The notes under the pieces are model-generated. The model ran no database searches. It saw nothing but the letters and a program-made list of their open reading frames with translations, and was not told the DNA's origin. 64,000 nucleotides of DNA from Candidatus Omnitrophota bacterium (GTDB lineage: Bacteria > Omnitrophota > Gorgyraeia > Gygaellales > Profunditerraquicolaceae), in the NCBI GenBank assembly GCA_028716965.1, contig JAQUOV010000004.1, positions 140,298-204,297 of the forward strand, in the 5' to 3' direction. This document shows positions 3,888-64,000 of this stretch, one piece after another; position 1 is the first letter of the stretch; each line of letters starts with the position of its first letter. The translations under genes and the position numbers were made by a program.

Positions 3888-4553
3888 GTGATAATCATGG
3901 ATGAAGCAAAATCAAAAACCTTGAGAAATATTGAAGAAAAAATGGAGGCCCTGGACAGCGGTTCTTTACGCTACCACATTTTAGAGAGCGCCAAGAACTT
4001 TAAGCGTTCATGGATAGAGTTGGGCCGGGCCCTTTATTCGGCATGGAAAGACAAGATGTATAAGGAGTGGGGGTATGTAAACTTTGATATCTATGTCAGC
4101 CGCGAGATAGGCATACGTAAACAGACGGCAATGAAGCTGCTCAAGTCGTATTATTTCCTGGAAAAAGAGGAGCCGCAATATTTAAAAAACGATTATGCGC
4201 AAAGCAGCCAGGCTGCCAATATCCCCAGCTATGAGTCAGTGGATATCCTGCGCCAGGCGAAGAATAAGAAGGCATTAGATGCGGATGATTATAATAACCT
4301 GAAAAAAGAGATTTTTGAAAAGGGCAGGGATGCCCAGGAACTGAAGAAAAGCCTGGGCGTAATCATCAGGCAGCGCCAGGAGCTGGATCCGGAGGAAGCG
4401 CAGGAGAAAAGAAGGCTGGCTATGTTAAGGAGGGTTCTGGGTCAGTTGCGTATGTTGAAACAGGAGGCGGAGGTTTTAAAAATGCTTCCTATGCCGTTAA
4501 TTAAAGAGTTGGATGCCTTGATAAAGAAGATTGATGCTGCGCTGGGAGCGTAA
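3888..4553 (+). CDS. Hypothetical cytoplasmic protein
   Basis: 221 aa ORF with coding-like composition. No recognisable motif. Confidence 0.4.
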   Translation: MIIMDEAKSKTLRNIEEKMEALDSGSLRYHILESAKNFKRSWIELGRALYSAWKDKMYKEWGYVNFDIYVSREIGIRKQTAMKLLKSYYFLEKEEPQYLKNDYAQSSQAANIPSYESVDILRQAKNKKALDADDYNNLKKEIFEKGRDAQELKKSLGVIIRQRQELDPEEAQEKRRLAMLRRVLGQLRMLKQEAEVLKMLPMPLIKELDALIKKIDAALGA

Positions 4554-4559
4554 ATTTAT

Positions 4560-4973
4560 ATGGTAAATCTTGCCCGGGATGCTATGACCTTGGAAAAGAA
4601 GATGCTCGCTTTAGGGGTGCGCGATGATGATATTGTGGAAACCTTTATCCATTCAAGCGGGCCGGGGGGGCAGAATGTAAATAAGACTGCTACCTGCGTA
4701 TATCTTAAACATTTGCCTACCGGTCTTGAGGTGAAATGTCAGCGTCAGCGTTCGCAGTTGCTTAACCGCCGGTTAGCCAGGTACATACTTTTAAGCAAGA
4801 TTGAAAATAAGATCAAGCATAATCTTTTGCAGAAGCAGTCGCTTAAGGCAAAGATCAGGCGCCAGATGCGCAGGAAACCCAAAGGTGTAAAATTAAGGAT
4901 CCTTGAGCAAAAACGCCGGCATTCAGAAAAGAAATCTACGCGTAGAAAAATCCGCGAAATTGAGATTGCATAA
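4560..4973 (+). CDS. arfB: Alternative ribosome-rescue factor ArfB (peptidyl-tRNA hydrolase, RF-1 domain)
   Basis: GGQ motif (SSGPGGQNVNKT). Short ~137 aa with a basic C-terminal tail typical of ArfB/YaeJ. Confidence 0.8.
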   Translation: MVNLARDAMTLEKKMLALGVRDDDIVETFIHSSGPGGQNVNKTATCVYLKHLPTGLEVKCQRQRSQLLNRRLARYILLSKIENKIKHNLLQKQSLKAKIRRQMRRKPKGVKLRILEQKRRHSEKKSTRRKIREIEIA

Positions 4974-7622: not shown

Positions 7623-9812
7623 GTGAAAGAAAGAAGATTAAATGAGGTCAAAGGCGTTATTTTAATAGCGGTTGGGCTGATGGTTTTGGCCAGCCTCCTG
7701 CGCTTTGATCGTGCTGACCTCGTTTTTTTTACCTCGCACCCCAATTTTCCCCCTAAAAATCTGCTGGGAGTTTTCGGCGCCTATTTAGGCGGGTTTCTCG
7801 TATTCCTCTTCGGCAATATCTCAAGTTTTATTATCCCGTTTCTGGTCATTACCCTGGGTGTAAAGTATTTTCGTCAGGATAAGCCTTATCTTAGTATCCC
7901 GCGTATTATGGGGATGTTCGTATTGCTTATCTCCTTGAGTTCGCTTATCGGCATGTTTAATTTAAGCAACGATTTGTTAAGGTTTCATACCGCGGGGTTT
8001 TTGGGCGCGCTTACCTCCAACTTCATAACCGCATATTTCAGCCGTTTAGGCGGTTTTATTATTTTTATTACCTTTATTATCCTTTCCCTGGCCCTGGTTA
8101 CGGAAATCCTCATCTCTTCGCTTTTCTTGAAGACGCTTGAAAGATTAAAATCGTTTTTCTCGGGAATGTTCGATTTATCCAGCAGACAGAAGGCAACCTT
8201 GGTTAAGGTTAAGCAGAGCCTTTTGCATAAGAATAGCCTTTCCTCTAAGAAAGATGAGCAGCAGGCAGCTACTTCAAAACCAAAGATATTCATGCCTGAG
8301 GCCGCCGCCAGGCCGAAGATACAAATTAAATCCCGCCAGCAGGGAGAGGAAATAAAGATCAAGGCCAAGGAATTGAAGATCGGCGATTATCATCTGCCTT
8401 CCGTGGACCTGCTGGATGAAGCCCCTGAACCGGATACCAGGCAGATGAAGGAGGACCTTGAATCCAGCGCCAGGATCCTTGAGGATACATTGACAGATTT
8501 TGGGATCGCGGCCAAGGTCACGGATATTATCCGCGGCCCGGTAATTACGCGCTATGAACTTGAGCCTGCTCCCGGAGTAAAGATCAACCGTATCGAGGCT
8601 TTAAGCGATGATATCGCTTTGGCAATTAAAGCCCAGTCAGTAAGGATTATCGCGCCTATCCCGGGAAAAGGCCGGGTAGGGGTTGAGGTCCCTAATTTGC
8701 ACAGCGCTTTAGTGTGTATTAAAGACCTGCTCGTTTCTGCCGAATACCATAAACAAAAATCGTCTCTTACCCTGGCTTTAGGCAAGGATATTACCGGAAG
8801 GTCTGTCTTTGGCGACCTGGATGATATGCCGCACCTTTTGATTGCCGGCACTACCGGTTCCGGAAAGACTGTATGCGTGAATACCTGTATTTTATCTTTG
8901 CTTTTCAGGGGCTCGCCCAACGACCTGAAGTTTTTGATGATTGACCCGAAAATGGTGGAGCTGATGCCTTTTAACGGACTGCCGCATCTTTTGTGTCCGG
9001 TTGTTACCGACGCCAAGAAAGCGGCGGTTGCGCTTAATTGGGTAGTTGGACAAATGGAGGAGCGTTATCAGCTTTTGGCTAAGATAGGAGTGAGGAATAT
9101 CGAGGCCTATAATGAGAAACAACAAGAGAAGTTGCCTTATATCGTAGTGATAGTAGATGAATTCGCGGATCTGATGACCGTAGCGCGTGACCAGATTGAA
9201 AATGCGATTACCCGCCTGGCGCAGTTGTCGCGGGCGGTAGGCATACACCTGATTTTAGCCACGCAGCGGCCAAGCGTTGATGTAATTACCGGTGTAATTA
9301 AAGCGAACTTACCGGCGCGTATATCTTTTAAGGTCGCTTCTAAAGTTGATTCGCGCACGGTTTTGGATATGAATGGGGCGGAAACCTTATTAGGTAAAGG
9401 CGATATGCTATTCCTGCAACCCGGGAAAGAGGACCTTATCCGTATACAGGGGGCGCTGGTTAAAGACGGGGAGATTGAAAAGGTGGTAGAGTTTATCAAA
9501 GCGCAAGGGGAGCCGGCTTATAATGACCAGATCCTTAAGGAACAGCAAAAAAATAACTTGGCCGGAGGCGGGGAAAAAGATGAGCTTTATGACGAGGCGG
9601 TGCGCGTAATAATGGAAAGCAACCAGGCGTCGGTTTCCATATTGCAAAGGCGTATGCGTTTAGGCTATACGCGCGCTGCGCGTATTATAGATATAATGGA
9701 GATGGAAGGTTTGGTTGGCCCGTATGAGGGGAGTAAACCGCGCAGGATCCTGGTTGACCGCGAGGCGTGGCTTAAGGATTTGACAGGTCTTAAGGGGACA
9801 GAGAAAATATGA
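7623..9812 (+). CDS. ftsK: DNA translocase FtsK/SpoIIIE
   Basis: Several N-terminal TM helices, a linker, a Walker A motif (GTTGSGKT) and a C-terminal gamma domain. Confidence 0.9.
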   Translation: MKERRLNEVKGVILIAVGLMVLASLLRFDRADLVFFTSHPNFPPKNLLGVFGAYLGGFLVFLFGNISSFIIPFLVITLGVKYFRQDKPYLSIPRIMGMFVLLISLSSLIGMFNLSNDLLRFHTAGFLGALTSNFITAYFSRLGGFIIFITFIILSLALVTEILISSLFLKTLERLKSFFSGMFDLSSRQKATLVKVKQSLLHKNSLSSKKDEQQAATSKPKIFMPEAAARPKIQIKSRQQGEEIKIKAKELKIGDYHLPSVDLLDEAPEPDTRQMKEDLESSARILEDTLTDFGIAAKVTDIIRGPVITRYELEPAPGVKINRIEALSDDIALAIKAQSVRIIAPIPGKGRVGVEVPNLHSALVCIKDLLVSAEYHKQKSSLTLALGKDITGRSVFGDLDDMPHLLIAGTTGSGKTVCVNTCILSLLFRGSPNDLKFLMIDPKMVELMPFNGLPHLLCPVVTDAKKAAVALNWVVGQMEERYQLLAKIGVRNIEAYNEKQQEKLPYIVVIVDEFADLMTVARDQIENAITRLAQLSRAVGIHLILATQRPSVDVITGVIKANLPARISFKVASKVDSRTVLDMNGAETLLGKGDMLFLQPGKEDLIRIQGALVKDGEIEKVVEFIKAQGEPAYNDQILKEQQKNNLAGGGEKDELYDEAVRVIMESNQASVSILQRRMRLGYTRAARIIDIMEMEGLVGPYEGSKPRRILVDREAWLKDLTGLKGTEKI

Positions 9813-13541: not shown

Positions 13542-13996
13542 AATAAACGCAATGCCTCTGCAATAGTTTTATTTCGGATGCCGTGCCGGCTTCCCCGGAA
13601 AGTAAATCTCCGGCAAATATTCTTATCTTTTTCGGACAGCGATATAAAGACAGTGCCTACCGGTTTATTTACGCTTGAACCGCCTGGCCCGGCAAGACCG
13701 GTTATACCGATGCCTAAATCTGCCTTTGATTTCTTGCGGATGCCTTCTGCCATTGATATTGCCACCTGGCGGGAAATCGCACCATATTTAGAGATAAGCT
13801 TTGCGGGGACCTGCAGGATTTTTTCTTTAGAGCTATTACTGTAAGCAACTATGCCCAGGAGGAAATAGGCCGAGGCGCCCGGCTTCTGGGTTAATTTAGC
13901 ACAAAGCAGCCCTCCGCTGCAGGATTCGGCAATGGCGATAGTTTTTTTCTGGTGGAGTAGCTGGTTATGGATTTCAGATATTATTTTATCAGGCAT
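13520..13996 (-). CDS. pncC: CinA C-terminal domain protein / NMN amidohydrolase PncC
   Basis: IAIAESCSGGLL motif of the CinA_C domain. Confidence 0.8.
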   Translation of the reverse strand: MPDKIISEIHNQLLHQKKTIAIAESCSGGLLCAKLTQKPGASAYFLLGIVAYSNSSKEKILQVPAKLISKYGAISRQVAISMAEGIRKKSKADLGIGITGLAGPGGSSVNKPVGTVFISLSEKDKNICRRFTFRGSRHGIRNKTIAEALRLLCAHLSP

Positions 13997-14025
13997 TACC
14001 GTTATTATAGCCGTTTTTAATTATG

Positions 14026-14053
14026 TTGACAAGCCCGGTTTTTCTGTTAAAAT
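14026..14053 (+). promoter_or_regulatory. Candidate promoter for the FMN riboswitch-ribBA leader (TTGACA-16-TAAAAT)
   Basis: TTGACA at 14026-14031, TAAAAT at 14048-14053. The -35 box overlaps a minus-strand TTGTCA-17-TATAAT promoter for cinA. Confidence 0.45.
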
Positions 14054-14065
14054 AATAACAATTAA

Positions 14066-14270
14066 TCTTTAGGGCAAGGTGACCTGCCTGACGGTAGGCA
14101 GGAATTCCTTACCGGCGGTGCAGCCCGCGAGCTGGCGCTTGGATTCTAGCGCCAGCAGATCCGGTGAGATTCCGGAGCCGATGGTGCCATGCGGATGGCC
14201 ACTGGCGCAATTCAAATTAACGCCAGGTGCGGTCTTCCGTATGTCGAAAGTCCAGATGGAAAAAGATTAA
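14066..14270 (+). ncRNA. FMN riboswitch (RFN element) aptamer
   Basis: Conserved RFN blocks: GGGCAAGGTGA...AATTCC..ACCGGCGGT..AGCCCGCGAGC...GGTGAGATTCCGGAGCCGATGGT...GAAAGTCCAGATGGAAAAAG. Lies immediately upstream of ribBA. Confidence 0.85.
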
Positions 14271-14280
14271 AATTAATACG

Positions 14281-14308
14281 CCCAAAGATTGCCTTTGGGT
14301 TTTTTATT
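14281..14308 (+). terminator. Intrinsic terminator (riboswitch expression platform)
   Basis: Hairpin CCCAAAGattgCCTTTGGG followed by TTTTTTATT. Confidence 0.75.
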
Positions 14309-14341
14309 AGTGCTTAAGGGCTGGATAGTGGAGATATAACC

Positions 14342-15550
14342 GTGTTTAATTCAATTCCCGAGATCATTGAAGATTTAAAAGCAGGCAGAATGGTGATTGT
14401 GGTTGATGATGAAGACCGCGAGAATGAAGGTGACCTGATCATGGCTGCTTCATTTATCAAACCCGAAGATATAAACTTTATGGCTAAGTTCGGACGCGGG
14501 CTTATTTGTGTGCCTATGGAAGAAGAGAGGCTGCGTTTGCTGGAGCTTGACCCGATGCTTAAGAATACCCTGCAGGCCAACGCGGAGGATCCTTTTAAGA
14601 CTGCCTGGATGATCTCTGTTGATGCCGCCAAAGGGGTGACTACGGGGATCTCTGCTTATGACCGGGCCAGGACAATTGAGGTCTTGATTAACGGACAAAG
14701 CAGGCCGGAAGACCTGGCGCGTCCGGGGCATATCTTTCCTTTGCGTTCACGGCGGGGAGGTGTTTTAGTCAGGGCAGGGCACACTGAAGCAAGTTTGGAT
14801 CTGATGCGCCTGGCAGGGCTTTATCCGGCGGGAGTGATTTGCGAGATTATGAATGATGATGGTTCCATGGCCCGCCTGCCGCAGCTTTTGGAGTTTGCCG
14901 GTAAGCACACTTTAAAGATTTGCACTATTGCCAGCCTTATTGAGTACCGGCGCAGGAAAGAGAAGCTGGTTGAGGCCATAGTTCAGACAAAGCTGCCTAC
15001 CAGATTCGGCGAATTCAGGTTGGTTATCTACCGTGATAAGACCAGTAACCAGACGCATATAGCGCTTTGTATGGGTAGCTGGTCTTCCGAGGCTATATTG
15101 GTACGCGTGCATTCGGAATGCCTGACCGGTGATGTTTTTGGTTCATTGCGCTGTGACTGCGGCAGGCAGTTAGAAAGAGCAATGCAGATTATCTCACTTG
15201 AGAAAAAAGGGGTAGTCCTTTATATGAACCAGGAGGGAAGAGGGATAGGCCTGGTGGAGAAGCTGCGCGCTTATAACCTTCAGGATAAAGGGATGGATAC
15301 GGTTGAAGCAAATGAAGCATTGGGGCATAAGGCTGACCTGCGTGATTATGGCATTGGCGCCCAGATCCTCGTGGATTTAGGAGTTAAGCAGATCAGGTTG
15401 TTGACTAATAACCCGCGTAAGATTGTCGGCCTGGAAGGTTATGGTTTGAAGGTTTCTGAACGCGTGCCTTTAGAGATAGAGCCTAACGCGGAGAATTACC
15501 GGTACCTTAAAACAAAAAAAGAAAAATTGGGGCATCATATAGATATATAG
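14342..15550 (+). CDS. ribBA: Bifunctional 3,4-dihydroxy-2-butanone-4-phosphate synthase / GTP cyclohydrolase II
   Basis: DHBP synthase N-domain ([11 protein letters not shown]) and GTP cyclohydrolase II C-domain (CxxC...C zinc site, RGIGL). Confidence 0.95.
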
Positions 15551-15610
15551 CGGGTAGGCAGTAGATAGAATGCAGTATGCAGGGAACATAGAAAAAGAAG
15601 GGAGAATGAG

Positions 15611-16078
15611 ATGGTAAAAGTAATGGAAGGGAACTTGTTGGCAAAGGGAAGGTCTTTTGGTTTGGTGGCTTCGCGGTTTAATGATTTTATGACCAAGGAG
15701 CTGGTAAGCGGCTGTATCGATACATTGGTCAGGCATGGCGCAGATGACAAAAATATTACTGTGGCCTGGGTCCCCGGGGCATTTGAGGTCCCTGTGGTGG
15801 CGCAGAAAATGGCTAAAACTAAGTCGTTTGATGCCTTGATTTGTTTAGGGACGGTTATCCGCGGGGCGACTCCGCATTTTGATTATATTGCTTCTGAAGC
15901 GGCAAAGGGCGTAGCCAAGGTTTCTTTGGACAGCGGGATCCCGGTTATCTTCGGCATTATTACCGCCGATACTATTGAACAGGCAGTAGAACGCGCAGGT
16001 TCTAAAGATGGTAATAAAGGCCGTGATGCGGCCCTTTCGGCTATAGAGATGGTGAATTTAACAGGGCAGTTGAAATAA
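15611..16078 (+). CDS. ribH: 6,7-dimethyl-8-ribityllumazine synthase
   Basis: 155 aa lumazine synthase fold (FNDFMT...GAFEVP...). Confidence 0.9.
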
Positions 16079-16194
16079 TATTATTAATCTCTTCCCGCCT
16101 CAGAATATTCGGCGGGATAATCCTTGTCCGTTTCGCTCGCAAGGACTGCGTTAGATAAAAACTATAAGGTGCTTGATTGGCGCATTAATTACTT

Positions 16195-16611
16195 ATGAGA
16201 AAAAGAACTAAGGCTCGTGAATATGTATTGCAAATGCTCTATCAGGTGGATATTACCCGGGGCAATTGGCAGGATATAATGAATAGCTTCTGGGAGTCTG
16301 GCCTTCAGGAAGATATTCCTGCTGAACTTAAGGAATTCTCCGCAGATTTGCTAAAAGGGGTGGTTGAGCATATGCACGAGATTGACGAAAAGATAAGCAA
16401 GTATGCGGCAAACTGGAAGCTTGAGCGTATGGCATTTGTGGACCGTAATATTATGCGCTTAGGTTGTTTTGAGCTTATTTTCCGTGAGGATATCCCCCCC
16501 AAAGTAACGATAAATGAAGCAGTAGAGCTGGCCAAGAAATATTCCGGGTCTGAATCCGGCAAGTTTGTCAATGCCATACTGGACCAGATAAAAATCGAGA
16601 AAGACAAGTAA
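16195..16611 (+). CDS. nusB: Transcription antitermination factor NusB
   Basis: 138 aa NusB family protein (RxxARExxLQxLY). Conserved position after ribH. Confidence 0.85.
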   Translation: MRKRTKAREYVLQMLYQVDITRGNWQDIMNSFWESGLQEDIPAELKEFSADLLKGVVEHMHEIDEKISKYAANWKLERMAFVDRNIMRLGCFELIFREDIPPKVTINEAVELAKKYSGSESGKFVNAILDQIKIEKDK

Positions 16612-19392: not shown

Positions 19393-19546
19393 CATAAATT
19401 TAACGAGTGGACAACTTATGAAGTGATAACGACATAAGTTGTAGCGTAAGCGTCCATGAGTTAATCCCGTTATCTGCCAGCGGTACTTTTGGCACAATGC
19501 GCAAAAGTACCGCGGAGCGGTTAGATAACGGGAGATAGCTTAGGCT

Positions 19547-51287: not shown

Positions 51288-52198
51288 AGGAATTATCTTT
51301 TATCGTTTTGCCTGAACAGGCGAAGATGCGCCTGGATTTATTATTAGCAGAATATGCCGCCTGCAATAATTTAGGCTTATCACGCACGAATATCCAAAAG
51401 CTTATTGCCGCCGGGAATGTTTTTTTAGATTCGCGCCCGGCTAATAAGCCCCACCAGAAGGTAAAATCAGCAGAAGAGGTAAAGGTCATGCTTCCGGAAA
51501 AAGAAAAGGCACAGATACTGCCGGAGCGGATATCGCTTGAAGTAATCTATGAAGATGATGACCTGGCGCTTATTAATAAGCAGCCGGGCCTGGTGGTACA
51601 TCCGGCACCCGGTAACCGGGAGCATACTTTGGTTAATGCTTTGCTCAGCCGCTTCGCCCAGCTCTCCGATATCAACAAAAACCGTCCGGGGATCGTCCAC
51701 CGTTTGGATAAGGAAACCAGCGGCTTGCTGGTTATTGCGAAAAATAATCCCAGCCATTTAAAATTAGCCAGGCAGTTTGCCGAGCACAGTATCCAGCGCA
51801 AATATGTGGCTATAGTTTCGGGAAGGGTGGAATTTGACGAGGATGTGATCGAGGCGCCGATCGGCAGGCATCCTTCAAAAAGAAAAAGCATGTCGGTAAG
51901 TTTTTTAGAAAATACCCGTTATGCCAAGACGCATTACCGCACTTTAAAAAGAAGCGCTGATTTCAGTTTTCTGGAGTTGAGGCCTTTTACCGGCAGGACA
52001 CACCAGTTAAGGGTGCACCTTGCTTTTTTAGGCCACCCTATTTTAGGCGATGCCAAATACGGCAGGGACAAGATTTTCCCCCGCATGGCCCTGCACGCCC
52101 AGGAGATCGGCTTTATCCATCCGTCCACGGGTAAGTTTATGCATTTCTCAAGCCCGATCCCGCGGGAGTTCCAGGATTTTATTAAGAAAAACTTTTAA
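51284..52198 (+). CDS. rluD: RluA-family pseudouridine synthase (RluD-like)
   Basis: N-terminal S4 domain and HRLDKETSGLLV catalytic motif. Confidence 0.85.
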   Translation: MKELSFIVLPEQAKMRLDLLLAEYAACNNLGLSRTNIQKLIAAGNVFLDSRPANKPHQKVKSAEEVKVMLPEKEKAQILPERISLEVIYEDDDLALINKQPGLVVHPAPGNREHTLVNALLSRFAQLSDINKNRPGIVHRLDKETSGLLVIAKNNPSHLKLARQFAEHSIQRKYVAIVSGRVEFDEDVIEAPIGRHPSKRKSMSVSFLENTRYAKTHYRTLKRSADFSFLELRPFTGRTHQLRVHLAFLGHPILGDAKYGRDKIFPRMALHAQEIGFIHPSTGKFMHFSSPIPREFQDFIKKNF

Positions 52199-52495
52199 GG
52201 AGAGATATTTTACGTGGTTAAGCTTAAAATCCCCATAGCTACTCGTTTTGAATCAAAAATCATTTTTGTTCATTATCCTGCTTCGTAAACTCGGCAGGCC
52301 CTTGCATAGAACGCAAGGACTGCGTTCGATAAAAAATATAAGGTGCTTGATTTCGCGCAGCAAGCGCGCACTTGCCACTCCTGTTTGGCAAGGTGCGCTA
52401 AATTGTTATGGGTGCTCAATTTTTTGCTTGCTTTTTACGTAACCAATGTTATAGTAAAGGTTAACGAATACGCGTAAAATCATAAAGGAGGTAAG

Positions 52496-53344
52496 ATGGA
52501 TTTCAAAGGGCCTATCTTGAAATTTATTTTGATTGGTTTGACTGTTATCTCTTTAGTTTTTGCCGGGGTATTTGTACACTTGTACCAGAATGAACGCCTG
52601 AAAGCTGAAAAGCTGCAATCCCAGGTTGATGAGTTAACCGCCCGGGAACGCGTACTTGAGGATAAGCTTGAGGCTTCCAATAAAAATGTTGCGGAGTTGA
52701 TCTCTAAACTGCAGGAAAGCAAGGACCGGATTGCCAGTATAGGAGAAGAACTGAATAAGGAAAAGTCAACGCGGCAGGACGCGCTGAAGGAGCTGGAGCA
52801 GATTAAGACAGAGATTGAGCAGCAGAAATTCTCGCGCCAGGATTTAGAGAGCAAACTTGGAAAGGCTTTAGCAGAGGGCAATAAGTTGAAAGAACAGCTG
52901 CAGATTATTAACCGGCAAAAAGATGAGCTTGAGGTAAAGCTCAAAGATTTAGAATCCGCTTCTGCCGGCGTAGAGCTGGGAAAGGTAGTAGTAAACAGCG
53001 AGTCTGTTGAGCCTTATCGGGAGGGGAATGCTTCGGAGGCAAAAAAGACGGATTCTTCTTCTCCTGTTTCGCTAAAGGATAAAAAACAGGAAGGCCTTTC
53101 CAAGAACAATCTTTTGGAAGGCAGGATCACGGTAGTAAATAAAGAATATAATTTTGTAGTGATAAACTTAGGTGAAAAAGAAGGCCTGAATAAAGGAGAC
53201 CAATTTTCCGTATATCATGAGGGCAAAATGATCGGTGATATAACAGTGGAAAAGGTCCATGAATCAATGTCTGCCGCGGGTTTTGCAGCAGACCTAAAAA
53301 ATACAATCAAAGAGAACGATATAGTAATACAAAAGGTCAAATGA
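52496..53344 (+). CDS. Membrane-anchored coiled-coil protein with a C-terminal beta-rich domain (hypothetical)
   Basis: N-terminal TM helix, then about 130 aa of heptad-rich E/K/L/Q sequence, then a C-terminal GRITVVNKEYNFVVINLG...GDQFSV domain. Strong GGAGG ribosome-binding site. Confidence 0.55.
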   Translation: MDFKGPILKFILIGLTVISLVFAGVFVHLYQNERLKAEKLQSQVDELTARERVLEDKLEASNKNVAELISKLQESKDRIASIGEELNKEKSTRQDALKELEQIKTEIEQQKFSRQDLESKLGKALAEGNKLKEQLQIINRQKDELEVKLKDLESASAGVELGKVVVNSESVEPYREGNASEAKKTDSSSPVSLKDKKQEGLSKNNLLEGRITVVNKEYNFVVINLGEKEGLNKGDQFSVYHEGKMIGDITVEKVHESMSAAGFAADLKNTIKENDIVIQKVK

Positions 53345-55802: not shown

Positions 55803-55990
55803 GCCACCAGGCGGATACCGACGCAATACCATTAAGCGTCGGGTATAAGCCACCAGGCGGACACCGACGCAATTCCGTTAAGCGTCGGGTGTAAGCCACC
55901 AGGCGGACACCGACGCAATATTCGCCACGAGGCGAACACTTGCGCAATACAAATAAGCGCAAGGCGCCAATTAGCGCCAGGTGCAGAGCC
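55803..55990. repeat. Tandem 46-bp hairpin repeat array (2.5 units) plus palindromic hairpin elements
   Basis: Units at 55803-55848, 55849-55894 and a partial third at 55895-55920. Each contains CCGCC..GGCGG and CCGACGC..GCGTCGG hairpins. Further hairpins follow, including CACTTGCGC-loop-GCGCAAGG. Confidence 0.8.
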
Positions 55991-63571: not shown

Positions 63572-63599
63572 TTGACAAAATGTAGTTTTGTAATAGAAT
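63572..63599 (+). promoter_or_regulatory. Candidate promoter with A-rich UP element (TTGACA-16-TAGAAT)
   Basis: aaaaaaaccc-TTGACA at 63572-63577, TAGAAT at 63594-63599. Upstream of the rRNA leader. Confidence 0.45.
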
Positions 63600-63708
63600 A
63601 ACGTTTCCCTTCCAAAAGGGGCAAATTATTGTGAAAATAATTAAGACGCTGTTGACAATTTCCGGCAACTAACCACTATACGACAAATAGGGCGTAAAGA
63701 TAAATTTT

Positions 63709-63742
63709 GCGCCCCGACAGTTTGTCGGGGCGTATTTTTTTT
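63709..63742 (+). terminator. Intrinsic terminator
   Basis: GCGCCCCGACA-GTTT-GTCGGGGCG stem-loop followed by TATTTTTTTT. Confidence 0.7.
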
Positions 63743-63807
63743 GCCGCAGAAGCGGCACACTGGCGCAATTTCCAGTAGCGCCAGGTGGGAGCATAGATTT
63801 GGATCAC

Positions 63808-63823
63808 TGCTCTTTTGATAATT
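63808..63823 (+). promoter_or_regulatory. boxA-like antitermination element in the rRNA leader
   Basis: TGCTCTTTTGATAATT resembles the rrn boxA consensus TGCTCTTTAACAATTTA. Confidence 0.4.
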
Positions 63824-63977
63824 GAATTGCCAAGCGAGGCCAAGGTAATTCGCCGTAGAGGCGGCGCACTTGCGCAAATCAAATTAGCGCAAGGTGCGTT
63901 AAAGATTACTAAGGTCAATTTCATGAGGTTAGAAATTAAATAAATCACTAGAGCCTTCATACAAATTTCTCAAATTT

Positions 63978-64000
63978 TTTCGGAGAGTTTGATCCTGGCT
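63978..64000 (+). rRNA. rrs: 16S rRNA gene, 5' end (truncated by the window edge)
   Basis: AGAGTTTGATCCTGGCT at 63984-64000 is the universal 16S 5' (27F) sequence. The mature 5' end probably lies a few nt upstream. Confidence 0.85.

Follow-up and report, generated by a model that had tools for sequence, protein, structure and literature searches.

We analysed a 64,000-nucleotide stretch of contig JAQUOV010000004.1 from a Candidatus Omnitrophota bacterium (hereafter the window), and in it a short intergenic unit that consists of a small hairpin followed by a conserved tail. Two strong copies were read directly from the sequence, copy A at 16122-16178 and copy B at 52300-52352. Pfam searches identified ribBA, ribH and nusB around copy A, which lies in the ribH-nusB spacer, and a pseudouridine synthase gene and a gene for a coiled-coil protein around copy B. 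The original prediction, made from the sequence alone, had placed the motif upstream of nusB, of the coiled-coil gene and of 16S rRNA (5' end at about 63982), and this placement was correct.

The similarity between copies A and B was assessed in several ways. A degenerate 40-mer, GCAAGGACTGCGTTNGATAAAAANTATAAGGTGCTTGATT, matched exactly at 16139-16178 and 52313-52352, and there were no matches in 100 shuffles. A repeat search aligned the cores of the two copies at 39 of 41 bases (95% over 41 nt), and no such match is expected by chance. A proposed identity of 45 of 48 positions holds with one indel after TTGATT; ungapped, the two 48-mers share 39 of 48 positions. The CCTTG(C)...(G)CAAGG hairpin described ahead of the motif precedes both copies. 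Its loops are wholly different, with 13 nt in A (11 nt if the U-G pair beside the loop is taken into the stem) and 7 nt in B. The two copies are not orthologous, and they have in common a lineage-specific GCGTT variant of the tail.

Two covariance models were run over the window: R1, of the A/B type, and R2, built only from sister-type units of other genomes (E-values of both models are rough). Even with filters off, R1 recovered only A (81.2 bits, 16110-16180) and B (61.9 bits, 52288-52354). The four best matches of R2 were C (58.4 bits), D (22.6 bits), A (19.5 bits) and B (18.4 bits). Copy C (52366-52421), directly after B, had been missed in the original prediction and was first spotted by eye; R2, which holds no window sequence, matched it at 52363-52424 with E = 2e-15. 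As read, C consists of GCGCACTTGCC..GGCAAGGTGCGC followed by TAAATTGTTATGGGTGCTCAATT. Copy D, in the leader of the 16S rRNA, matched R2 at 63861-63923 with a rough E of about 1.5e-4. It had been described as a degenerate version of the A/B motif. We found it to be a real but distant relative that belongs to the sister subtype, because R1 misses it with filters off over the whole window and R2 ranks it second there. Its tail lacks the GCT of GGTGCT. The features of the four copies are collected in the table.

Table. Features of copies A to D and of the predicted promoter that follows copy C (window coordinates; hp0, upstream hairpin; hp1, unit hairpin; MFE, minimum free energy)
Feature	Position	Strand	Basis
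Copy A, hp0 (CCCGCC-11 nt-GGCGGG), then ATAAT	16094..16116	+	sequence; RNA MFE fold
Copy A, hp1 CCTTG(T)/(G)CAAGG, loop CCGTTTCGCTC	16122..16144	+	R1 match
Copy A, conserved tail ACTGCGTTAGATAAAAACTATAAGGTGC	16145..16172	+	exact pattern match; nearly invariant across genomes
Copy A, terminal hexamer TTGATT, no -10 box after it	16173..16178	+	promoter scans
GGCGCA, possible partner of UGCGUU at the start of the A tail	16179..16184	+	helix of the MFE fold (inferred)
Copy B, hp0 (CCTGC-12 nt-GCAGG)	52277..52298	+	sequence; centroid fold
Copy B, hp1 CCTTGC-ATAGAAC-GCAAGG	52300..52318	+	R1 match
Copy B, tail ACTGCGTTCGATAAAAAATATAAGGTGC and terminal TTGATT	52319..52352	+	pattern match, repeat search
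Linker TCGCGCAG after B, its CGCAG complementary to CUGCG at the start of the B tail	52353..52360	+	
Copy C, hairpin GCGCACTTGCC/GGCAAGGTGCGC with one bulged G, tail TAAATTGTTATGGGTGC, terminal TCAATT (52416-52421)	52366..52421	+	R2 match
Copy D, in the 16S leader, hairpin CGCACTTGCGC/GCGCAAGGTGCG, tail TTAAAGATTACTAAGGT-CAATTT	63865..63921	+	R2 match
Predicted promoter of the coiled-coil gene, -35 TTGCTT (52428-52433), 16-nt spacer, TGt-TATAGT (52450-52455)	52428..52455	+	promoter score 9.9

The family outside the window and the anatomy of its unit

We scanned species-representative genomes (one per species) with CAAGGN{0,2}TGCGYTN{8,18}GGTGCTYRATT, a looser pattern that admits both subtypes, and obtained 33 stretches. 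The full unit was present in 15 loci from about 10 Omnitrophota metagenome-assembled genomes (2 labelled Planctomycetales). The other 18 stretches came from unrelated phyla, had neither the unit hairpin nor the A-rich tail, and were about as many as the estimated chance level; those that were read were coding-like sequence. One locus (L025; loci outside the window carry L numbers) is from a close relative, with a NusB 89% identical to that of the window and the same unit in its own ribH-nusB spacer. A metagenome scan with GGACTGCGYTN{10,16}AGGTGCTTGATT returned 59 contigs, 58 with the unit and one (L061) with a chance match. R1 detected 73 units in the 59 metagenome loci, and made 18 strong matches in the window and the Omnitrophota genome loci. 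On long contigs the density of strict copies was 2 in 64 kb, 2 in 269 kb and 1 in 228 kb.

There was no copy of the unit in viral contigs. Rfam 15 gave no match over any copy when the whole window was searched at the gathering score, and permissive searches gave none at 13800-16300 and 52150-52520 (E up to 1 and 10) or in eight related loci (E up to 1). We found no published Omnitrophota intergenic repeat of this kind in the literature. The element is undescribed, and limited to one lineage of an uncultured phylum.

The unit has four parts: the hairpin hp1, the tail, the hexamer TTGATT at the end of a solo unit or of an array (TCAATT in sister types), and often a second hairpin, hp0, upstream. 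hp1 has the form CCYNN...NNRGG with a stem of 5-8 bp. The tail, about 33 bases of conserved sequence in all, has the consensus ACTGCGYT-rGAyAAAAnCTATAAGGTGC. hp0 ends in ..GG followed by AUWAU, and its equivalents, ending ..CGGG/GG with AUWAU, stand before most solo or first units in other loci. In L025 and L017 the only differences in the 5' arm of hp0 are changes that preserve G-U pairs.

The stem of hp1 covaries. Among 68 distinct sequences, 98.7% of cells were paired, five of the six pairs showed compensation and there were 62 double-change cells, in an alignment fitted to the model and somewhat favouring structure for that reason. None of 500 shuffles reached this level, and slid registers were also far off. 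Stems differ even inside one array, where CCTTGC/GCAAGG stands beside CCTGCC/GGCAGG (L048, L052), and the pairing is therefore selected as a structure and not as a double-stranded protein site. Pairs other than Watson-Crick favor folding of the sense strand (12 G-U compared with 3 C-A). The interior of the hairpin is conserved (YUCG...CUCR), and its stability is modest (median -7.7 kcal/mol).

Units occur singly or as arrays in which 2-4 of them follow one another as direct repeats, 53-62 nt from one to the next. The longest array has four units (L013), and others are found in L006, L009, L028, L032 and L048. An array often starts with a partial tail or with hp0, and always ends in the terminal hexamer. 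Clusters mix A-type units, sister-type units and other hairpin modules; the order seen at copies B and C, an A-type unit followed by TCGCGCAGCAAGC and a C-type unit, recurs in L037, L071, L079 and L083. Some of the other modules are visible in the window. Hairpins of the form CAC-stem-AAT..TTA-stem-GGTG occur at 14200, 55937, 63758 and 63867, the last being the hairpin of copy D; their stems covary (TGGCGC/GCGCCA, TTGCGC/GCGCAA, CGACGC/GCGTCG) and have one bulged G in the 3' arm. At 55803-55970, between two genes, there are at least five small hairpins in tandem (GCCACCAGGCGGA and CACCGACGCAAT..TTAAGCGTCGGGTRTAA) with a period of 46 nt, an array that looks like a different module of the same mosaic repeat system.

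All units are intergenic, and overlap flanking open reading frames (ORFs) by at most 20 nt. The hairpin typically starts 3-60 nt past the upstream stop codon. Across about 85 arrays the units are co-directional with the flanking genes (~96%), with three independent antisense exceptions: L003 5246-5317, between rplI and dnaB; L057 3872-3941, the same as L074, between rpmE and prfA; and L007. In L057 the gene for Rho precedes rpmE. A few units lie in divergent spacers (L002, L008, L073). It had been suggested that a lack of further copies, copies equally frequent inside genes or random orientation would speak against a signal; there are many further copies, none of them inside a gene, and their orientation is that of the neighbouring genes in about 96%.

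The genes downstream fall into 38 unrelated clusters, plus tRNA genes, without a functional theme. They encode, among others, a peptidoglycan-binding lipoprotein, an OmpA-family lipoprotein, a deoxyhypusine-synthase-like protein, MEDS, SLOG, adenylosuccinate lyase, GlmS, PyrR, Rrf2, ATP synthase subunits, GatC, FolE, RibBA, L21 and NusB. The unit is consequently not a signal common to three particular operons, as it had first appeared, because it precedes at least 38 unrelated gene families and tRNA genes.

At a tRNA-Arg(CCG) locus, direct repeats of 17-20 nt of the tRNA 3' end (ATTCCTGCCAGGCGCAA) flank the unit in five contigs (L076 at 7887-8070, L043, L047, L062 and L078). This flanking repeat looks like an insertion footprint or the scar of site-specific recombination. 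GGCAGG/CCUGCC flanks at the same locus could make alternative or enclosing helices.

The window holds about 60 long gene-like ORFs, all on the + strand, and the GC skew of that strand is +0.13. Related loci have skews of +0.1 to +0.2, an unusually strong G excess on the coding strand. This coding-strand bias (+0.13 to +0.2) dominates GC skew as a replication marker, which did not separate transcription-linked from replication-linked orientation.

Further features of the window adjoin copies A and D. A flavin mononucleotide (FMN) riboswitch lies upstream of ribBA at 14064-14270 (54.2 bits, under the Rfam gathering score of 66.2), with a canonical terminator on its 3' side at about 14280-14305; nusB is therefore in an operon that begins behind a riboswitch. 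Related extra hairpins appear inside the loops of this riboswitch, including one of the CAC..GGTG type at 14200-14230. The 16S leader (63572-63985) has consensus promoters with TTGACA at about 63572 and about 63653, then a terminator-like hairpin with a T8 run (63709-63741), a further hairpin, a boxA-like TGCTCTTTTGATAA at 63808-63821 and, about 60 nt before the 16S 5' end, copy D.

Promoter register and the sequences that follow the unit

For 66 distinct terminal units, sigma-70-type promoters (a -35 hexamer, a spacer of 16-18 nt and TAnnnT) were scored over the next 150 nt, and scores of at least 10 were taken as strong. In 13 of the 66, TTGATT was itself the -35 hexamer of a strong predicted promoter, compared with 1.76 expected and a maximum of 6 in 200 shuffles. 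These promoters have a spacer of 16-17 nt and a -10 box that is mostly TGnTAAAAT. In another 17 of the 66, a predicted -35 (mainly TTGACA or TTGACT) began +10 to +14 from the start of TTGATT, 4-8 nt past its end, compared with 0.19 expected from shuffles. Together the two classes account for 30 of the 66 terminal units, with registers about one helical turn apart; predicted promoters anywhere from +15 to +84 numbered 7. When orthologues were collapsed, the two classes represented about 5-6 plus 8 independent gene contexts, about 13 in all. The original prediction had suspected a link to transcription initiation, and this fixed register to predicted promoters after many units supports one.

The array of copies B and C falls in the second class, with the predicted -35 of the coiled-coil gene beginning 12 nt from the start of the TCAATT of C. 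That promoter scores under the stricter threshold of the promoter scan tool, and is followed by the Shine-Dalgarno sequence and ATG of the gene. The TTGATT of copy A is 16 nt upstream of the nusB ATG (16195), and copy D is inside the 16S leader, downstream of two clear promoters.

At orthologous loci with flanking proteins 61-90% identical, there is almost no variation in the last unit, in TTGATT or in the -10 box. The tail and TTGATT are conserved as strongly as the -10 box, and the promoter spacer and hairpin loops vary. Towards 61% identity, we would expect alignment of neutral intergenic DNA to be difficult. The number of units at orthologous sites varies from 0.5 to 3. In the orthologues L056 and L086 the tail and promoter are kept and the hairpin is gone, and other sites have two or three units. 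The tail is thus the constant, promoter-side part, with hairpin-plus-tail units gained and lost.

A conserved 5' untranslated region (UTR) extends from the predicted promoter to the gene for the peptidoglycan-binding lipoprotein, GGYAAGGAGGTGAA...ACGTCATAATA...AGAGAGGAG ATG (L028, L051, L069, L072, L079), and may be an undescribed leader element.

A distinct set of units is followed by a short complement of the tail. CGCGCA, CGCAG or GCGCA occurs within 14 nt past TTGATT in 13 of the 66 units, compared with a background of 0.2% (100-fold), and CGCAG is complementary to CUGCG at the tail start. The MFE fold of the ribH-nusB spacer (16079-16200) has three hairpins, includes the UGCGUU/GGCGCA helix and has z = -2.4. 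A CUGCG/CGCAG helix would close the tail into a loop, as modelled from complementarity between two sides that are both invariant and show no covariation. The GCGTT tail variant of A and B is associated with C or G right after TTGATT (p = 0.02). Elsewhere, units of this class often have a further hairpin, AACTTACG..CGTAAGTT, on their 3' side, and then a boxA-like GYGCTCATTWAAA directly against start codons without a Shine-Dalgarno sequence.

Starts of that kind also occur next to units. The nusB genes of the window (start region 16179-16197) and of L025 (start region about 3994-4013), and ribB of L052, start 15-17 nt past TTGATT without a Shine-Dalgarno sequence, with the ATG in ..AACTTATG or TTACTTATG, a sequence similar to the 5' arm in the AACTTACG type of hairpin module. 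A separate module has a long hairpin around AACTTAYG..CRTAAGTT, followed by the boxA-like GYGCTCATTWAAA. It is found at 19398-19470 in the window, where it follows tRNA-Pro, and in L005 (2612-2664), L021 (about 4700-4757), L054 and L080; in four independent loci it abuts the start of a gene without a Shine-Dalgarno sequence.

Interpretation and alternative explanations

Several familiar identities were tried for the unit and rejected. For boxA, the NusB/NusE site, whose consensus is GYTCTTTAANA (PMC5725501), the GGTGCTTGATT of the motif has no CUCUUU core (no CTTT), and the window has a boxA-like sequence of its own. For an intrinsic terminator, the stem is weak and runs into ACUGCGCU, which has no U-tract (2 of 8 nt are U), and a terminator scan was empty at A and B. 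A promoter inside or before the unit could draw on GATAAT before hp1 or TATAAG in the tail, but neither has a consistent -35 and TATAAG lacks the final T. A palindromic transcription-factor site is excluded by stems that differ and covary within one array. Copy A contains a 24-codon ORF that starts with TTG and overlaps nusB by ATGA, but the frame is closed in B and L025, and units 53, 55, 56 or 62 nt long would not preserve a reading frame, as none of these lengths divides by 3. ACAAGGA resembles the CsrA consensus, but its GG is inside the stem and its flanks mismatch. A reverse-strand match to the integration host factor (IHF) site, AATCAAGCACCTTA, has a spacing wrong by 1 nt. Alignment of the tail to tRNA-Arg(CCG), with or without CGCGCAG, was no better than to shuffles (p = 0.4-0.8). 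For a miniature inverted-repeat transposable element (MITE) or Correia-type element, the ends (..ATCCTTG and GCTTGATT..) are not inverted repeats, and there is no recurrent flanking duplication except the 17-20 nt at tRNA-Arg.

We favor the reading that the units form a lineage-specific, mosaic family of intergenic repeats, of the REP/BIME, BOX and Correia kind, at gene boundaries, where they supply upstream promoter DNA; we give this reading a probability of about 0.5. A repeat family is preferred to a gene-specific signal because hairpin and tail are conserved in units that form arrays, combine as mosaic modules, lie between genes with a strong orientation bias and include antisense copies, and also because of the hairpins in riboswitch loops and the duplication of the tRNA-Arg 3' end. 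The fixed register and the retention of the tail at orthologous sites suggest that many copies are maintained as upstream promoter DNA, TTGATT probably being the -35 or lying next to it. Units would duplicate in tandem (1-4), combine with other hairpin modules, and be retained where one gene has ended and the promoter or start codon of the following gene has yet to come. The tail would act as DNA, as the upstream region of ordinary sigma-70-type promoters that it might stimulate, its last six bases serving as the -35 box or sitting one helical turn upstream of TTGACA. The hairpin would matter in single-stranded form, either at the 3' end of the upstream transcript or as single-stranded DNA while the unit spreads or duplicates. 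Copies inside transcription units, such as A in the ribH-nusB spacer and D in the rRNA leader, would simply be transcribed, with the hairpin folding alone.

Several points weigh against this reading. The near-invariance of the tail and its long retention at orthologous loci are stronger than is usual for selfish repeats, and would equally fit the site of a trans-acting factor. Neither terminal inverted repeats nor a general target-site duplication were seen in the unit loci. The conserved hairpin interior, YUCG...CUCR, suggests specific recognition by some factor. No sigma-70-like promoter was found for copy A (15500-16400), and none was predicted at the tRNA-Arg locus or after units followed by a further hairpin; because of these cases, promoter supply cannot be the function of all copies. 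All of the promoters are consensus predictions. The loci were gathered by means of the motif itself, including TTGATT, and our counts do not give the number of copies per genome or of units with other ends. We consider it rather improbable that the unit is the site of a sequence- and structure-specific factor that couples the end of one transcription unit to the next initiation, or else a hairpin-guided mobile promoter module without inverted repeats. If the former were true, the unit would be a lineage-wide gene-boundary signal; if the latter, it would carry an outward -35 and target promoter-proximal DNA.

Another reading makes the unit the operator of one global DNA-binding factor. Here the tail would be a site, similar to those of Fis or the UP element upstream of E. 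coli rRNA and tRNA promoters, for a protein or the C-terminal domain of the RNA polymerase alpha subunit (alpha-CTD) by the -35, arrays would be multiple sites, and each site would have been selected independently at its promoter instead of arriving with a spreading repeat. The two promoter registers about one helical turn apart (offset 0 and 10-14), the survival of the promoter beside the tail-only L056/L086 sites, and a tail that is invariant where flanking proteins are 61-90% identical would all be expected of such an operator, as would the distance of about 22 bp between two conserved blocks that contain GC, CTGCGYT and GGTGCT, on either side of an A-rich spacer. The downstream tRNAs, L21, nusB, gatC, ATP synthase and glmS are plausibly highly expressed. 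However, hairpin covariation within one array would be meaningless for a double-stranded site, and the 53-62 bp periods of the arrays show no helical phasing. Some half of the units lack a promoter in register, including those at nusB, ribB, the tRNA-Arg locus and the rRNA leader, and the spacers of operons contain antisense copies. It is also less likely that a 33-nt site arose independently at more than 38 loci than that a unit was duplicated, and on balance we find an operator doubtful. Similarly unlikely, in our estimate, is a structured RNA element, with hairpins and a tail closed by CUGCG/CGCAG, that would serve as a signal of the transcript between cistrons or in the 3' UTR. Such an RNA might be a site of processing or 3'-end protection, aid initiation of translation without a Shine-Dalgarno sequence (nusB), or link the rRNA leader to Nus antitermination. 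The sense orientation in ~96% of contexts and the bias of G-U wobbles to the sense strand (12 to 3) are consistent with an RNA, and a hairpin 3-60 nt past the upstream stop codon must be transcribed. The 100-fold enrichment of CGCAG/GCGCA after TTGATT and the MFE fold of the nusB spacer (z = -2.4) point the same way, as do the location of copy D in the 16S leader, of the L017 and L035 copies between frr and tRNA genes, and of others immediately ahead of starts without a Shine-Dalgarno sequence (nusB of the window, L025 and ribB of L052), and the tail contains AAGGUG, complementary to the anti-Shine-Dalgarno. Yet in at least 30 of the 66 units the downstream promoter follows the unit, which is then outside the mRNA of that gene; the divergent-spacer copies (L002, L008, L073) have no co-directional gene upstream, some units come after a canonical terminator (L034, L070), and the hairpin can vanish while the tail remains. 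The weak hairpin (median -7.7 kcal/mol) followed by ACUGCGCU is not an intrinsic terminator, the tail resembles neither the boxA consensus (PMC5725501) nor the TGCTCTTTTGATAA of the window, and no Rfam family matches.

Of the options in the original prediction, a transcription-factor site and an RNase or processing role may still apply. It had also raised the option that an unknown sigma factor reads the conserved block as its promoter. A conserved sequence ahead of unrelated genes would fit, and nusB, in an operon behind an FMN riboswitch, might need a promoter of its own. On inspection, no pair of conserved blocks has the spacing of sigma-54, sigma-28, extracytoplasmic function (ECF) or Bacteroidetes-type promoters, TATAAG has no invariant final T and varies (TTTAAG, TATGAG, CTTAAG), internal units of an array would be redundant as promoters, and antisense copies are found in operon spacers. 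The complete promoters that come after units are of the ordinary TTGACA/TATAAT type, and the unit would contribute at most a -35 TTGATT and upstream DNA; we therefore abandoned this option as very improbable. Chance similarity or a single local duplication, which the presence of just two strong copies in 64 kb might suggest, has next to no likelihood given 0 matches in 100 shuffles and dozens of copies in other genomes and metagenomes.

Omnitrophota are uncultured, and the signals of gene expression there are almost unknown. The element is a recognisable marker of transcription-unit boundaries and of probable strong promoters in these genomes. It is also a clean case of a covarying hairpin and a sequence-conserved tail kept together over genus- to family-level divergence. 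For those who search for motifs it is a warning, since what is conserved ahead of unrelated genes is in this case a repeat family and not a regulon. If it is true that the tail stimulates or creates promoters, promoter DNA would be spread by the duplication of small cassettes.

Comparison with known systems

The unit resembles the rrn antitermination signals (boxB hairpin, boxA, boxC) in having a hairpin and a conserved single-stranded block in the 16S leader (D), and in standing upstream of nusB. In Pseudomonas, autoregulation of Nus factors by a boxA upstream of ribH-nusB has been proposed (PMC5725501). The window differs in that a separate, canonical boxA-like TGCTCTTTTGATAA is present, and most copies of the unit are upstream of promoters and not in leaders. 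The A-rich part of the tail, GAyAAAAnCTATAA, would lie at about -55 to -42 if TTGATT is the -35, as in UP elements and Fis sites, and several units are upstream of tRNA promoters. UP elements are A/T-rich tracts at -40 to -60 through which alpha-CTD stimulates transcription. In contrast to them, since they are A-rich at -41 to -37, the unit has GGTGC there; UP elements are conserved in A/T composition, and have neither a 33-nt sequence with GC blocks nor a covarying hairpin. The rRNA promoters of the window have plain A-rich upstream DNA, without a unit.

Correia elements (NEMIS/CREE, Neisseria), promoter-bearing MITEs and the ends of insertion sequences are likewise small repeats that bring -35 or -10 hexamers and create or modify the promoters of neighbouring genes, and those of their copies that are co-transcribed form hairpins. 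A Correia element is bounded by terminal inverted repeats and a TA target duplication, whereas inspection showed neither in the Omnitrophota units. The repetitive extragenic palindromes (REPs) of enterobacteria and the bacterial interspersed mosaic elements (BIMEs) that they form are intergenic, hairpin-forming, single or clustered and mosaic, and often lie where a transcription unit ends, within the transcript of the upstream gene. Like these clustered intergenic imperfect palindromes of several modules, the units are intergenic, have covarying hairpins and occur in mixed clusters. REPs are longer, GC-rich imperfect palindromes that alternate in orientation within BIMEs, have no 30-nt non-palindromic tail, number hundreds per genome and are tied to REP-associated tyrosine transposases (RAYTs). 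The Omnitrophota units are direct repeats with weak hairpins, were much rarer on the few long contigs, at about 1 strict copy per 30-130 kb, and have a fixed promoter register, which is not a feature of REPs.

The BOX elements of Streptococcus pneumoniae, boxA-(boxB)n-boxC, are modular, with an internal module of ~45-60 bp in variable direct repeats, and lie near the promoters of unrelated genes; their copy number varies between strains, and their effect on expression has been shown experimentally. Variable direct modules between fixed ends are what we found here, with 1-4 units between a start in a partial tail or hp0 and an end in TTGATT. There is no sequence similarity to BOX, and whereas the boxA and boxC ends of BOX pair into one long stem-loop, each Omnitrophota unit has a small hairpin of its own and the array ends in TTGATT.

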